Positions 813 through 23,494 of a stretch of 51,502 bases of DNA are shown here, one piece after another. A program made the position numbers and the translations under genes. Under the pieces are notes generated by a model. The model saw nothing but the letters and a program-made list of their open reading frames with translations. It made no database searches and had not been told where the DNA came from. Source of the DNA: Escherichia coli (lineage in GTDB: Bacteria; Pseudomonadota; Gammaproteobacteria; Enterobacterales; Enterobacteriaceae); the NCBI RefSeq assembly GCF_048403405.1, contig NZ_CP183133.1, one strand, 5' to 3'. The first letter of the stretch is position 1. Each line of letters opens with the position of its first letter.

Positions 813-1632
813 GGCACTGTTGCAAAGTTAGCGATGAGGCAGCCTTTTGTCTTATTCAAAGGCCTTACATTTCAAAAACTCTGCTTACCAGGCGCATTTC
901 GCCCAGGGGATCACCATAATAAAATGCTGAGGCCTGGCCTTTGCGTAGTGCACGCATCACCTCAATACCTTTGATGGTGGCGTAAGCCGTCTTCATGGAT
1001 TTAAATCCCAGCGTGGCGCCGATTATCCGTTTCAGTTTGCCATGATCGCATTCAATCACGTTGTTCCGGTACTTAATCTGTCGGTGTTCAACGTCAGACG
1101 GGCACCGGCCTTCGCGTTTGAGCAGAGCAAGCGCGCGACCATAGGCGGGCGCTTTATCCGTGTTGATGAATCGCGGGATCTGCCACTTCTTCACGTTGTT
1201 GAGGATTTTACCCAGAAACCGGTATGCAGCTTTGCTGTTACGACGGGAGGAGAGATAAAAATCGACAGTGCGGCCCCGGCTGTCGACGGCCCGGTACAGA
1301 TACGCCCAGCGGCCATTGACCTTCACGTAGGTTTCATCCATGTGCCACGGGCAAAGATCGGAAGGGTTACGCCAGTACCAGCGCAGCCGTTTTTCCATTT
1401 CAGGCGCATAACGCTGAACCCAGCGGTAAATCGTGGAGTGATCGACATTCACTCCGCGTTCAGCCAGCATCTCCTGCAGCTCACGGTAACTGATGCCGTA
1501 TTTGCAGTACCAGCGTACGGCCCACAGAATGATGTCACGCTGAAAATGCCGGCCTTTGAATGGGTTCATGTGCAGCTCCATCAGCAAAAGGGGATGATAA
1601 GTTTATCACCACCGACTATTTGCAACAGTGCC
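813..1632 (-). mobile_element. IS26 (IS6 family), copy 1, 820 bp
   Basis: Terminal 14-bp IRs GGCACTGTTGCAAA at 813-826 and TTTGCAACAGTGCC at 1619-1632; encodes Tnp26. Flanking 8-mers differ (ATTTAAGC / ACGCACGT), so no direct target duplication. Confidence 0.95.
865..1569 (-). CDS. tnpA: IS26 transposase Tnp26 (234 aa)
   Basis: ORF-track protein MNPFKGRHFQRDIILWAVRWYCKYGISYRELQEMLAERG... matches IS26 transposase as I recall it; start taken at the MNPFKG methionine inside the 240-aa ORF. Confidence 0.9.
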   Translation of the reverse strand: MNPFKGRHFQRDIILWAVRWYCKYGISYRELQEMLAERGVNVDHSTIYRWVQRYAPEMEKRLRWYWRNPSDLCPWHMDETYVKVNGRWAYLYRAVDSRGRTVDFYLSSRRNSKAAYRFLGKILNNVKKWQIPRFINTDKAPAYGRALALLKREGRCPSDVEHRQIKYRNNVIECDHGKLKRIIGATLGFKSMKTAYATIKGIEVMRALRKGQASAFYYGDPLGEMRLVSRVFEM

Positions 1633-1950
1633 ACGCACGTCGTAGTCCGCATCACTAGCCCAGGCGACGCTTGAAAGAACAACGCCGGTGGTGCTTATCC
1701 CGGCCATGACAAGCGTGCTTACGCCGCGCGTCCGAAGGTCGGCGTCGAGCGCCGTGCCATAAAAGACGCTGGCTCGCGGACATGCATAGAAAAGGTCGCC
1801 CCGTTCGATCGCAAGCCCTTCGACGGGCAGACCGGTGCGAAATCGTCCGCTCGGGAGATACGGTGAGATTTGGCGATTCGTCGCCGGCGGCGCATGTTCA
1901 TACTCTTCGCCGAGCGAAAAGTTGGGGAACAGCACGGGCCGGCCGCGCAA
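1633..1950 (-). pseudogene. Isochorismatase-family hydrolase, internal fragment
   Basis: Translation ...GTALDADLRTRGVSTLVMAGISTTGVVLSSVAWASDADYDV resembles the isochorismatase/cysteine-hydrolase core; runs into IS26 on one side and the tnpA fragment on the other. Confidence 0.4.
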
Positions 1951-1959
1951 GGCGTGCTG

Positions 1960-3690
1960 GCAGCCGTGCAGACCCTGCGTGAGATGAACGCCGACAACCT
2001 GCGCAAGGTGCCGGCCGATGCACCCACGGCCTTCATCAAGCCGCGCTGGAAGCCGCTGGTGATCACCCCGGAAGGCCTCGACCGGAAATTCTACGAAATC
2101 TGCGCCCTGTCCGAGCTGAAGAACGCCCTGCGCTCGGGCGACATCTGGGTCAAGGGCTCGCGGCAGTTCCGCGACTTCGACGACTACCTGCTGCCGGCCG
2201 AGAAGTTCGCCGCACTCAAGCGCGAGCAGGCCCTGCCCCTGGCGATCAACCCGAACAGCGACCAGTACCTGGAAGAGCGTTTGCAGCTGCTGGACGAGCA
2301 GTTGGCCACCGTCACCCGCCTGGCCAAGGACAACGAGCTGCCCGATGCCATCCTCACCGAGTCAGGGCTGAAAATCACCCCGCTGGATGCGGCGGTGCCG
2401 GATCGGGCGCAGGCGCTGATCGACCAAACCAGCCAGTTACTGCCGCGCATCAAGATCACCGAACTGCTGATGGACGTGGACGACTGGACGGGCTTCAGCC
2501 GCCACTTCACCCACTTGAAGGACGGGGCCGAGGCCAAAGACAGGACGTTGCTGCTGTCCGCAATCCTCGGTGATGCGATCAACCTCGGGCTGACCAAGAT
2601 GGCCGAGTCGAGCCCCGGCCTGACCTACGCCAAGCTGTCCTGGCTGCAAGCCTGGCACATCCGCGACGAAACCTATTCGGCGGCCTTGGCCGAGCTGGTC
2701 AACCACCAGTATCGCCACGCCTTTGCCGCCCACTGGGGCGACGGCACGACCTCATCCTCCGATGGCCAGCGCTTCCGCGCGGGTGACCGGGGCGAGAGCA
2801 CCGGGCACGTCAACCCGAAGTACGGTAGCGAGCCGGGACGGCTGTTCTATACCCATATCTCCGACCAGTACGCGCCGTTCAGCACCCGCGTGGTGAATGT
2901 CGGCGTCCGCGATTCCACCTATGTGCTCGACGGCCTGCTGTACCACGAGTCCGACCTGCGGATCGAGGAGCACTACACCGACACGGCCGGCTTCACCGAT
3001 CACGTCTTTGCCCTGATGCACCTGCTAGGCTTCCGCTTCGCGCCGCGCATCCGCGACCTCGGCGAAACCAAGCTGTACGTGCCGCAGGGCGTGCAAGCCT
3101 ACCCGACGTTGCGCCCGCTGATCGGCGGCACCCTGAACATCAAGCACGTGCGTGCCCACTGGGACGACATCCTGCGCCTGGCCAGCTCGATCAAGCAGGG
3201 CACCGTCACCGCCTCGCTGATGCTGCGCAAGCTCGGCAGCTACCCGCGCCAGAACGGACTGGCCGTGGCCCTGCGCGAGCTGGGCCGGATCGAGCGCACG
3301 CTGTTCATCCTGGACTGGCTGCAAAGTGTTGAACTGCGCCGCCGCGTGCATGCCGGCCTGAACAAAGGTGAGGCGCGCAACTCGCTGGCCAGGGCGGTGT
3401 TCTTCAACCGCCTTGGGGAAATCAGGGATCGGAGCTTCGAGCAGCAGCGCTACCGGGCCAGCGGCCTCAACCTGGTGACGGCGGCTATCGTGCTGTGGAA
3501 CACGGTGTACCTGGAACGCGCCACCCAGGGGTTGGTCGAGGCCGGCAAGCCGGTGGACGGCGAGCTGCTGCAATTCCTGTCGCCGCTGGGCTGGGAGCAC
3601 ATCAACCTAACCGGCGATTACGTCTGGCGGCAGAGCCGCAGACTGGAAGACGGGAAGTTTCGGCCCTTACGGATGCCCGGAAAACCTTAG
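1960..3690 (+). pseudogene. tnpA: Tn3-family transposase TnpA, C-terminal ~575 aa (5'-truncated)
   Basis: 606-aa ORF translation (…[38 protein letters not shown]…[23 protein letters not shown]) is typical of the Tn3/Tn21-family TnpA C-terminus; stop at 3688-3690 lies inside the terminal IR. Confidence 0.85.
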
Positions 3691-22013: not shown

Positions 22014-22244
22014 ATGCGCACAGTTTCGATATTTAAAAACGGCAATAACCGCGCCATCCGTCTGCCCCGGGACCTGGATTTTGATGGCGTCAGCGAGCTG
22101 GAGATCGTCCGGGAAGGGGACAGCATCATTCTGCGTCCCGTCCGGCCGACCTGGGGCTCGTTCGCGCAGCTGGACAGGGCCGATCCGGACTTTATGGCGG
22201 AGCGTGAGGATGTGGTCAGCGATGAAGGACGCTTTGAGCCATGA
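22014..22244 (+). CDS. vagC: VagC antitoxin (VapB-like, AbrB/SpoVT fold)
   Basis: Translation MRTVSIFKNGNNRAIRLPRDLDFDGVSELEIVREGDSIILRPV…; 4-bp overlap with vagD. Confidence 0.85.
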   Translation: MRTVSIFKNGNNRAIRLPRDLDFDGVSELEIVREGDSIILRPVRPTWGSFAQLDRADPDFMAEREDVVSDEGRFEP

Positions 22245-22657
22245 AGAAAACCTGGATGCTCGACACCAACATCTGCTCGTTCATCATGCGCGAGCAGCCG
22301 GCAGCGGTGCTGAAGCGCCTGGAGCAGGCGGTGCTGCGCGGTGATCGCATTGTGGTCTCGGCCGTGACGTATGCCGAGATGCGCTTCGGCGCCACCGGCC
22401 CGAAGGCCTCGCCGCGCCATATTCAGCTGGTCGACGCGTTCTGCGCGCGCCTCGATGCCGTCCTGCCCTGGGACCGCGCCGCGGTGGACGCCACGACGGA
22501 CATCCGGGTGGCGCTGCGCCTAGCCGGGACGCCGATCGGCCCGAATGACACGGCCATTGCCGGGCACGCCATCGCGGCGGGCGCCATCCTGGTGACGAAC
22601 AATGTGAGAGAGTTTGCGCGGGTCCCGGGCCTGGTGCTGGAAGACTGGGTGAAATAA
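22241..22657 (+). CDS. vagD: VagD toxin (VapC-like PIN-domain nuclease)
   Basis: Translation MKKTWMLDTNICSFIMREQPAAVLKRLEQAV… with PIN acidic residues (D8, E…, D…). Confidence 0.85.
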   Translation: MKKTWMLDTNICSFIMREQPAAVLKRLEQAVLRGDRIVVSAVTYAEMRFGATGPKASPRHIQLVDAFCARLDAVLPWDRAAVDATTDIRVALRLAGTPIGPNDTAIAGHAIAAGAILVTNNVREFARVPGLVLEDWVK

Positions 22658-22674
22658 TCCCGTAATAATTTCCG

Positions 22675-23494
22675 GGCACTGTTGCAAATAGTCGGTGGTG
22701 ATAAACTTATCATCCCCTTTTGCTGATGGAGCTGCACATGAACCCATTCAAAGGCCGGCATTTTCAGCGTGACATCATTCTGTGGGCCGTACGCTGGTAC
22801 TGCAAATACGGCATCAGTTACCGTGAGCTGCAGGAGATGCTGGCTGAACGCGGAGTGAATGTCGATCACTCCACGATTTACCGCTGGGTTCAGCGTTATG
22901 CGCCTGAAATGGAAAAACGGCTGCGCTGGTACTGGCGTAACCCTTCCGATCTTTGCCCGTGGCACATGGATGAAACCTACGTGAAGGTCAATGGCCGCTG
23001 GGCGTATCTGTACCGGGCCGTCGACAGCCGGGGCCGCACTGTCGATTTTTATCTCTCCTCCCGTCGTAACAGCAAAGCTGCATACCGGTTTCTGGGTAAA
23101 ATCCTCAACAACGTGAAGAAGTGGCAGATCCCGCGATTCATCAACACGGATAAAGCGCCCGCCTATGGTCGCGCGCTTGCTCTGCTCAAACGCGAAGGCC
23201 GGTGCCCGTCTGACGTTGAACACCGACAGATTAAGTACCGGAACAACGTGATTGAATGCGATCATGGCAAACTGAAACGGATAATCGGCGCCACGCTGGG
23301 ATTTAAATCCATGAAGACGGCTTACGCCACCATCAAAGGTATTGAGGTGATGCGTGCACTACGCAAAGGCCAGGCCTCAGCATTTTATTATGGTGATCCC
23401 CTGGGCGAAATGCGCCTGGTAAGCAGAGTTTTTGAAATGTAAGGCCTTTGAATAAGACAAAAGGCTGCCTCATCGCTAACTTTGCAACAGTGCC
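22675..23494 (+). mobile_element. IS26, copy 2 (inverted relative to copy 1)
   Basis: IRs GGCACTGTTGCAAA at 22675-22688 and TTTGCAACAGTGCC at 23481-23494; flanking 8-mers AATTTCCG / AGTACATC differ. Confidence 0.95.
22738..23442 (+). CDS. tnpA: IS26 transposase Tnp26
   Basis: Protein identical to copy 1. Confidence 0.9.
   Translation: MNPFKGRHFQRDIILWAVRWYCKYGISYRELQEMLAERGVNVDHSTIYRWVQRYAPEMEKRLRWYWRNPSDLCPWHMDETYVKVNGRWAYLYRAVDSRGRTVDFYLSSRRNSKAAYRFLGKILNNVKKWQIPRFINTDKAPAYGRALALLKREGRCPSDVEHRQIKYRNNVIECDHGKLKRIIGATLGFKSMKTAYATIKGIEVMRALRKGQASAFYYGDPLGEMRLVSRVFEM

Follow-up and report, generated by a model that had tools for sequence, protein, structure and literature searches.

Two plasmid lineages joined by IS26 in one circle

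The window, by which we mean the whole 51,502-bp stretch of DNA analysed here, is probably (at a rough 80%) a closed mosaic plasmid with an IncR repB replicon, in which one IS26 copy (IS26-A), 21.0 kb of IncR DNA, a second, inverted IS26 copy (IS26-B) and 28.8 kb of IncFIB(K)/IncFII Klebsiella DNA were brought together by an IS26 fusion and then by further IS26 events (Table 1). The window closes as a circle, base 51502 being contiguous with base 1 in relatives. Including this wrap, the F-plasmid segment is colinear with the IncFIB/IncFII plasmid pKqq_SB98_2 (35273 to 7265 and on to 6453, 99.993% identity) and also with CP024483.1. The IncR plasmid pEclE4-2 (NZ_CP048698.1) matches the IncR segment colinearly at ~99.9% identity, and the sole difference in length is seven extra 37-bp repeats. 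The two segments belong to separate plasmid lineages (IncR versus IncFIB(K)/IncFII), with IS26 as the only joints. Since the window is circular, the two IS26 copies that bound the IncR segment also bound the 28.8-kb block. An earlier note on this DNA had described an IncR segment bracketed within a larger context and had overlooked the circle; treating the window as linear concealed its true architecture, a mosaic of two segments.

The genes listed by that note between the IS26 copies (rep, parAB, umuDC, a resD-type recombinase gene and vagCD/vapBC) are all present there. The IncR backbone is complete, with its nine genes (repB, parAB, umuCD, retA, resD and vagCD) and 36-bp iterons, the features by which this backbone has been described (PMC7707992); in pHN84KPC the 36-bp iterons are present in 10.5 copies (PMC7707992). 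As a candidate IncR parent, pCFSAN061769_02 was rejected for being too divergent and without vagCD. No replication gene other than repB was identified in the window, and the corresponding part of the F plasmid has no annotated rep gene. The F segment carries fecIRABCDE, an amidase/ABC-transporter cluster, two IS4321 copies, an IS903-like element and a response regulator gene; about 166 kb of F-plasmid DNA is missing here.

The linkage of the flanks across each 820-bp IS26 repeat is as given by the assembly. It is quite improbable that the junctions are real and the circle was misclosed via a collapsed IS26, for example by joining an IncR plasmid to an IS26-flanked region of a large F plasmid. 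IS26 exceeds short-read length and is a classic source of misjoins in plasmid contigs, the F segment lacks a replicon, and PLSDB (72,556 plasmids as searched) contains no plasmid with this exact mosaic. However, the circle is self-consistent, with one IRL and one IRR junction for each IS26 copy; it bears a predicted functional replicon along with partition, resolution and toxin-antitoxin genes; genuine hybrids of IncR and IncFIB plasmids, with this IS26 as the joint, are known; and the sequence holds no misjoin signal.

Table 1. Features of the 51,502-bp window
Feature	Position	Strand	Details
F-plasmid segment, last part	1-812		contiguous with base 51502 in relatives; reference 7264 to 6453 follows straight after 7265
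IS26 copy A	813-1632	-	tnp26 on - strand; IRR end toward 812, IRL end toward 1633; 820 bp, identical to copy B
IncR-derived segment	1633-22674		21,042 bp; both ends abut IS26 IRL ends
Isochorismatase-family hydrolase gene, 5' fragment, Tn1721 tet(A) region	1633-1935	-	cut by IRL end of IS26-A
Tn3-family (Tn1721-type) transposase gene remnant	1870-3690	+	model positions 384-954 of 954 matched
IS903B-type IS5-family element, copy 1	5301-6357	-	
stbA-like gene	6906-7292		between the two IS903-type elements
IS903-like IS5-family element, copy 2	7376-8432	-	direct orientation with copy 1
Group II intron	10933-12750	-	retA/ltrA reverse transcriptase 10933-12420; intron RNA domains D1-D4 12525-12750
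umuD and umuC	12826-14528	+	umuD 12826-13257 (UmuD 144 bits); umuC 13257-14528 (UmuC 797 bits)
parB and parA	14610-16789	-	parB 14610-15587; parA 15584-16789
IncR iterons	17184-17559		36-bp unit x 10.4
IncR repB, replication initiator	17650-18516	-	profile match plus annotation/IncR typing of near-identical relatives
resD-type tyrosine recombinase (multimer resolution)	19594-20370	-	
vagC/vapB and vagD/vapC	22014-22657	+	vagC/vapB 22014-22244; vagD/vapC 22241-22657; both intact
IS26 copy B	22675-23494	+	tnp26 22738-23442 (+); IRL toward IncR vagD, IRR toward F-plasmid segment
IncFIB(K)/IncFII-derived segment, first part	23495-51502		continues into 1-812; total 28,820 bp
Zn-dependent alcohol dehydrogenase (Zn-ADH)/quinone-oxidoreductase-family gene	23495-24472	+	without first 33 bp (MKAVGFWQPGE); cut by IRR end of IS26-B
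Hybrid sensor kinase/response regulator gene, 3' part	50160-51502	-	continues across window ends to 812; cut by IRR end of IS26-A

Two canonical IS26 copies with four unrelated flanks

Both IS26 copies are 820 bp long with perfect 14-bp terminal inverted repeats, exact at all four ends, and they are inverted relative to each other and 100% complementary. The terminal repeat GGCACTGTTGCAAA has exactly four matches in the window, at 813, 1632, 22675 and 23494, where 0.06 are expected by chance. Tnp26, a protein of 234 aa, reaches 275.6 bits with the IS6 transposase model (cut-off 125); it is identical to what we take to be the Tnp26 sequence.

The 8-bp flanks are ATTTAAGC and ACGCACGT for copy A and AATTTCCG and AGTACATC for copy B. 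For each copy, 5-6 of the 8 positions differ between the left and the right flank, so that neither copy lies in an 8-bp target-site duplication. Each of the 12 pairings among the four flanks, direct and reverse complement, has at least 4 mismatches in 8, and shifting the IS26 boundaries recovers no duplication, the longest common flank string being at most 6 nt. The earlier note, which had reported two inverted IS26 copies without target-site duplications and had found no pairs among the same flanking letters, is thus borne out, also after realignment; the inverted pairing of 8-mers that it proposed as a check for inversion did not materialize, no two of the four being reverse complements. Recombinational flipping of duplicated insertions is ruled out by the same lack of a match. 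Because the 8-bp duplication is a feature of the insertion event and not of the element, its absence does not affect the assignment to IS26. Neither copy is in an undisturbed insertion site.

Two identical inverted copies may be the product of a single trans event (PMC4471558), and the mosaic might accordingly be read as an otherwise contiguous plasmid with one intramolecular trans inversion, or else with two independent simple IS26 insertions. Such a reading is extremely unlikely and counts as refuted. Neither copy has a direct duplication, and the flanks of the two copies do not pair as reverse complements: the signature of a single trans inversion (left flanks with each other, right flanks with each other) shows 6 and 7 mismatches of 8; moreover, each flank runs on in relatives into DNA missing here, and the two sides of each IS26 come from different plasmid lineages. 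The suggestion of cointegration or inversion in place of simple insertion therefore needs dividing. Simple insertion is contradicted by the lack of duplications and by references that continue past the breakpoints, and cointegration is in keeping with the different lineages of the DNA to the left and right of each IS26; inversion alone fails, since it is unable to bring IncR DNA beside F-plasmid DNA.

Three new junctions and one ancestral junction

At all four breakpoints, the intact reference sequence runs through into DNA absent here. Translations compared with those of intact relatives show that the C-terminal 717 of 1126 aa are left of the kinase, 325 of 336 aa of the Zn-ADH/quinone-oxidoreductase-family protein and the N-terminal 101 of 130 aa of the isochorismatase-family protein. 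The breakpoints within these three genes are clean, and the comparison with relatives yielded, as had been anticipated, uninterrupted kinase and quinone oxidoreductase genes contiguous past the breakpoints. The claim that both IS26 copies abut truncated genes holds at these three junctions and not at the fourth (22674/22675), where no gene is cut and IS26-B begins 17 bp past the stop codon of an intact vagD.

The three gene-cutting junctions (GCTGGTCGTAATTTAAGC/GGCACTGTTGCAAAGTTA, CTATTTGCAACAGTGCC/ACGCACGTCGTAGTCC and CTTTGCAACAGTGCC/AGTACATCCGTTATTG) are new. None of them is found with IS26 in the 72,556 PLSDB plasmids, where the corresponding flank occurs in 350 records for the kinase, 2,537 for the isochorismatase and about 910 for the Zn-ADH gene, and the two F-side junction strings are also absent from 100,044 species-representative genomes. 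NZ_CP096815.1 was rejected as a match to the isochorismatase junction: there the opposite end of IS26 forms the junction, at a point 5 bp further in, which makes it an independent event. The junction of vagD with the IRL end of IS26-B, which had been treated like the rest, is exactly shared with 34 PLSDB records, several of them IncR; it is ancestral and pre-existed in many plasmids. In a relative, IS26 at this ancestral junction is followed by mph(A)-mrx-mphR-IS6100. These observations point to IS26-B as a resident of the IncR parent before fusion.

A pre-existing IS26 at vagD also agrees with an exchange by RecA, or by 'targeted conservative' recombination by Tnp26, between IS26 copies already in both parents, with the crossover within IS26 and no new transposition. 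IS26 would then have been present in the F plasmid within the kinase and Zn-ADH genes, and in the IncR plasmid at vagD and within the isochorismatase gene. A crossover within identical copies is traceless and likewise requires no duplications, and IS26-to-IS26 cointegration (Hall and co-workers) is discussed in PMC4471558. We nevertheless consider this exchange unlikely: IS26 is present in 0 of the 350 kinase-flank records, on either side of the breakpoint, and in 0 of the roughly 910 Zn-ADH-flank records of PLSDB; the IS26/isochorismatase junction is unique, the one nearby case being that of NZ_CP096815.1; and the parental IS26 insertions themselves would have to be ascribed to transposition and loss of the duplications.

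Probable fusion followed by trimming

In the favored reading of fusion and later IS26 events, the IncR and F plasmids would first have fused via IS26, either by copy-in to the Zn-ADH gene or by fusion elsewhere and then deletion. After that, IS26 would have acted again within the molecule, by inversion and/or adjacent deletions, so that the remaining F-plasmid DNA and the resistance region of the IncR plasmid were shed and all duplications erased. An event can create no more than two new junctions, which then share one target site; the three new junctions therefore call for a minimum of three events, and a two-event history was rejected on this ground. Adjacent deletions are required among these events to account for the interrupted genes and for the disappearance of ~166 kb of F-plasmid DNA and of the IncR resistance region.

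Two paths could lead to this outcome. In the first, copy-in at AGTACATC in the Zn-ADH gene would produce a cointegrate with two direct IS26 copies; the second IS26 would then attack ATTTAAGC in the kinase gene in trans, inverting the remainder of the F plasmid and forming the inverted copy A; finally, copy A would use its IRL end for a cis (deletion) attack on ACGCACGT within the isochorismatase gene, and the inverted F remainder would be lost together with the third IS26 and the resistance region of the IncR plasmid. The second path, equally economical, would start from a pre-existing inverted IS26 in the IncR resistance region, with one adjacent deletion per end. Both paths would discard the partner copy of each 8-bp target and so leave four unrelated flanks. 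The predicted intermediates would bear CCCGGGGAAAGTACATC/GGCACTGTTGCAAATAGTC (second cointegrate junction) and AATAAGTGGCTTAAAT/GGCACTGTTGCAAATAGTC (partner of the trans attack on the kinase gene). The partner junctions predicted for copy-in at the Zn-ADH or the kinase site have 0 matches in PLSDB. With no intermediate there and the F-side junctions missing from the 100,044 genomes, the order and type of the events are not reconstructable from sequence, on which Tnp26-mediated events and RecA-mediated recombination at IS26 would also look alike.

Replicon fusions, trans inversions and cis deletions by IS26 have been documented in Klebsiella plasmids, and unmatched flanks in more than half of 70 IS26 copies were ascribed to such events (He et al. 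2015, mBio, PMC4471558). Multi-step IS26 pathways with loss of resistance genes have also been described (PMC9676029); that work covers different replicons and does not describe the 51.5-kb plasmid.

Implications

The 51.5-kb mosaic is an ordinary outcome of IS26-driven plasmid fusion and trimming, and one further example of the shuffling of DNA between Klebsiella plasmids by IS26; it raises no new mechanistic questions. Unmatched IS26 flanks are here evidence of several events, not of one inversion or fusion. A small non-conjugative IncR replicon is able to carry metabolic and iron-uptake cargo of F plasmids with no annotated resistance gene, which is relevant to replicon-based typing and tracking. 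As a speculation to which we give little credence, the IncR module bracketed by inverted IS26 copies, with IRR ends outward, might be a mobile 'replicon cassette' that moves as a unit or seeds serial fusion and trimming, so that non-conjugative IncR plasmids sample and keep F cargo and shed resistance genes. If so, the plasmid would be a snapshot of an IS26 cargo exchange not driven by antibiotic selection, its cargo being fec iron uptake and amide utilisation.

Comparison with known systems

The plasmid resembles the IS26 reorganisations of He et al. (2015, PMC4471558) in its canonical inverted IS26 copies, the fusion of two lineages, genes cut exactly at IS ends and unmatched flanks, whereas both 8-bp patterns expected of a single fusion (direct) and a single inversion (reverse complement) are absent. 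It shares a two-lineage origin with an unresolved IS26 replicative cointegrate, but its IS26 copies are inverted, it has no direct 8-mer pair and it carries one replicon. Like an IS26 pseudo-compound transposon or translocatable unit (Harmer and Hall), it contains a segment bounded by two IS26 copies; in that model, however, the bounding copies are in direct orientation and inverted copies do not release a translocatable unit, and here they are inverted. With IncR plasmids of the pK245/pHN84KPC/pEclE4-2 type it has in common the nine backbone genes, the 36-bp iterons and IS26 beside vagD, as in the 34 other plasmids; unlike them, it lacks the usual IS26-associated resistance region (e.g., mph(A), tet(A)) and has 28.8 kb of IncFIB(K) accessory DNA instead. 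The IncR/IncFIB(K) hybrid pKp_SB62390_1 (NZ_CP084853.1) likewise has Klebsiella F-plasmid DNA attached to an IncR backbone through this vagD-proximal IS26. However, that hybrid is 196 kb long, has kept its IncFIB replicon and carries the phn/ptx region as the F DNA beside its IS26, whereas the 51.5-kb plasmid retains only a replicon-less 28.8-kb F piece.

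Two inverted IS26 copies on a circular plasmid

The window contains exactly four matches to the 14-bp terminal repeat of IS26, GGCACTGTTGCAAA, at 813, 1632, 22675 and 23494, against a chance expectation of 0.06, and these ends delimit two inverted copies, A and B, of 820 bp each and 100% complementary to each other. Their 234-aa product, identical to Tnp26, scores 275.6 bits against the IS6 transposase model (cut-off 125 bits). The bordering octamers, exactly as an earlier note had given them, are ATTTAAGC (left) and ACGCACGT (right) for copy A, and AATTTCCG and AGTACATC for copy B. 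In all 12 combinations, direct or reverse complement, at least 4 of 8 positions mismatch, and when the IS26 boundaries were moved, the longest string common to the flanks was a 6-mer, with no 8-bp direct duplication emerging. The missing target duplications are real and not an alignment problem, and the description of an inverted pair lacking them holds; the suggested pairing of flanks in inverted orientation was not found within the window.

The DNA right of copy B (23495-51502) aligns to positions 35273 to 7265 of the IncFIB/IncFII plasmid pKqq_SB98_2 (NZ_CP084805.1) with 99.993% identity, and 1-812 follows directly at 7264 to 6453 with 100% identity; the continuity from 51502 to 1 is also seen in CP024483.1. 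Because related F plasmids run without a break across its two ends, the window is a complete circular record, opened inside the truncated sensor kinase gene, a circularity that the earlier note missed. The circle therefore consists of two segments only, between one IS26 pair: an IncR segment of 21,042 bp bordered by both IRL ends, and 28,820 bp of accessory F-plasmid DNA bordered by both IRR ends. Linkage across each IS26 rests on the assembly, and we consider it very improbable that the circle was wrongly closed through collapsed IS26 repeats. Recombination by RecA between the inverted 820-bp repeats should be able to flip one segment against the other, and the flank analysis is independent of which isomer is present.

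Features of the two segments and the IS26 copies between them
Feature	Coordinates	Strand	Remark
IS26-A	813-1632	- (tnp26)	IRR toward 812, IRL toward 1633
Isochorismatase-family gene, 5' 303 bp	1633-1935	-	Tn1721 tet(A) region remnant
Tn3-family tnpA, truncated	1870-3690		Tn1721 tet(A) region remnant
IS1222 frameshift element (Rfam)	4210-4327	-	131.6 bits
IS903-type element	5301-6357		IncR segment
IS903-type element	7376-8432		IncR segment
37-bp GC-rich tandem array	8924-9718		21.5 copies, 93% match; weaker copies out to 8776-9815
447-bp F-like stretch	10069-10515		near group II intron 3' end
Group II intron with retA/ltrA	10933-12750	-	
umuD	12826-13257	+	
umuC	13257-14528	+	
parB	14610-15587	-	
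parA	15584-16789	-	
36-bp iterons	17184-17559		10.4 copies
repB	17650-18516	-	
resD-type tyrosine recombinase	19594-20370	-	
vagC/vapB	22014-22244	+	
vagD/vapC	22241-22657	+	
IS26-B	22675-23494	+ (tnp26)	IRL toward 22674, IRR toward 23495
Zn-dependent alcohol dehydrogenase/quinone-oxidoreductase-family (Zn-ADH) gene, truncated	23495-24472		
IS4321/IS110-family copies	24754-26157 and 45758-47161		inverted, 100% identical
IS903-type element	47279-48336		F segment
Sensor kinase gene, truncated	50160-51502 and 1-812	-	

The IncR segment (1633-22674) is colinear with the IncR plasmid pEclE4-2 (NZ_CP048698.1) at 99.9% identity, the sole length difference being seven additional units of the 37-bp tandem repeat in the window. 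All of the rep, par, umuDC, resD and vagCD genes claimed earlier are located here, and the gene assignments match the nine genes of the IncR backbone (PMC7707992); the IS26 elements and this backbone are both canonical. At the left end, the Tn1721 tet(A) region survives as remnants, and the IS1222 frameshift match indicates an IS3-family element, or what is left of one, between its tnpA and IS903B. The two IS903-type copies are in direct orientation, about 96-98% alike, on either side of a 1-kb stbA-like gene, and no 9-bp duplications were found at either. Several long ORFs overlapping the tandem array are probably spurious. The 447-bp stretch matches pKqq_SB98_2 41556-42001, which lies downstream of lacY, at 89% identity; it may represent a diverged second copy of the intron or target.

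On the F segment lie fecIRABCDE, an amidase/ABC-transporter cluster, two IS4321, an IS903-like element, a response regulator and the cut sensor kinase. No replication gene is annotated in this segment, so IncR repB is the only replicon identified. The IS4321 pair brackets the 19.6-kb fec and amidase/ABC-transporter region, as in pKqq_SB98_2; its repeat unit of 1404 nt is longer than IS4321 itself, presumably about 1.3 kb, so the repeat may also cover target DNA that was duplicated, perhaps terminal repeats of the Tn21 family. The IS903-type copy of this segment is inverted relative to the two IncR-segment copies and 90% alike, and could allow further recombination between the segments.

Three new junctions and their proposed origin

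At all four breakpoints the sequence of intact relatives continues uninterrupted, including through the kinase and quinone oxidoreductase (Zn-ADH) genes, for which this comparison had been proposed. By translation, the C-terminal 717 of 1126 aa remain of the kinase, 325 of 336 aa of the Zn-ADH (without MKAVGFWQPGE) and the N-terminal 101 of 130 aa of the isochorismatase-family protein. Truncated genes thus abut both copies as claimed, except at the fourth junction, which lies 17 bp past the intact vagD stop and cuts no gene.

Each junction, represented by 200 bp of flank and 24 bp of IS26, was searched in 72,556 PLSDB plasmids. The kinase, isochorismatase and Zn-ADH flanks are found in 350, 2,537 and 910 records, respectively, and their junctions with IS26-A (IRR), IS26-A (IRL) and IS26-B (IRR) in none. 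The single near-match to the isochorismatase junction, NZ_CP096815.1, was rejected as a carrier; it involves the opposite IS end, 5 bp further in, and is therefore an independent event. The junction of vagD with IS26-B (IRL) is present in 34 records, which differ from the window only by a SNP inside vapC, so IS26-B is the resident IncR copy. Of these 34, pKpn13-2 has the classic mph(A)-mrx-mphR-IS6100 unit beyond this IS26, and pKp_SB62390_1 (typed IncFIB+IncR) has F-type phn/ptx DNA there. Judged from these records, the new junctions are the IRR flank of IS26-B and both flanks of copy A.

Simple insertion of either copy is excluded by the lack of a duplication and by the loss of the DNA that should follow each breakpoint. 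So is a single inversion in trans: reverse-complement pairing is seen between no two flanks, and inversion cannot unite DNA of two plasmids. A single event gives two new junctions at most, both at one target, so the three new ones, each at its own site, imply at least three events. On one inferred path that is consistent with this, IS26-B would first have copied itself into the Zn-ADH gene of the F plasmid at AGTACATC, and the resulting cointegrate would have had two IS26 in direct orientation; the second IS26 would then have attacked the kinase gene in trans at ATTTAAGC, inverting the rest of the F DNA (about 166 kb for a parent as large as pKqq_SB98_2) and creating the inverted copy A; finally, the IRL of copy A would have attacked ACGCACGT in the isochorismatase gene in cis, with loss of the IncR resistance region, the third IS26 and what was left of the F DNA. 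A second path, just as short, would start from an inverted IS26 already in the IncR resistance region, with outward deletions from both ends. Under both paths every partner octamer would be lost, in agreement with the observed flanks. The predicted partner junctions were not found in PLSDB, and a search of 100,044 representative genomes for the F-side junctions gave no match either. By sequence alone, Tnp26-mediated events cannot be told from crossover by RecA between IS26 copies that were already in place; the complete absence of IS26 from these F sites in hundreds of relatives speaks against such crossover.

Comparison with known IS26 structures

The window lacks both the mph(A) module found in IncR relatives and the tet(A) side of the Tn1721 remnant, and the stretches of relatives that match it have no annotated antibiotic resistance gene. 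From these annotations, the plasmid appears to have given up its resistance region in exchange for cargo that serves iron uptake and amide utilisation, a swap of mild interest.

He et al. 2015 (PMC4471558) catalogued fusion of replicons, inversion in trans and deletion in cis as outcomes of IS26 activity, and the pattern in the window fits this catalogue; more than half of the 70 IS26 copies in their study had unmatched flanks, which they ascribed to such events. The earlier reading, cointegration or inversion rather than simple insertion, survives in its rejection of simple insertion and in that replicon fusion fits; the window does not show what marks an unresolved cointegrate (a direct duplication and copies in direct orientation), a single inversion product (reverse-complement octamers) or a pseudo-compound transposon (direct copies). 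Its architecture is of the kind described repeatedly for IS26-joined mosaics in Klebsiella (PMC4471558; PMC9676029), and as the exact mosaic and three of its junctions are absent from PLSDB, it is a new example of these well-known structures.
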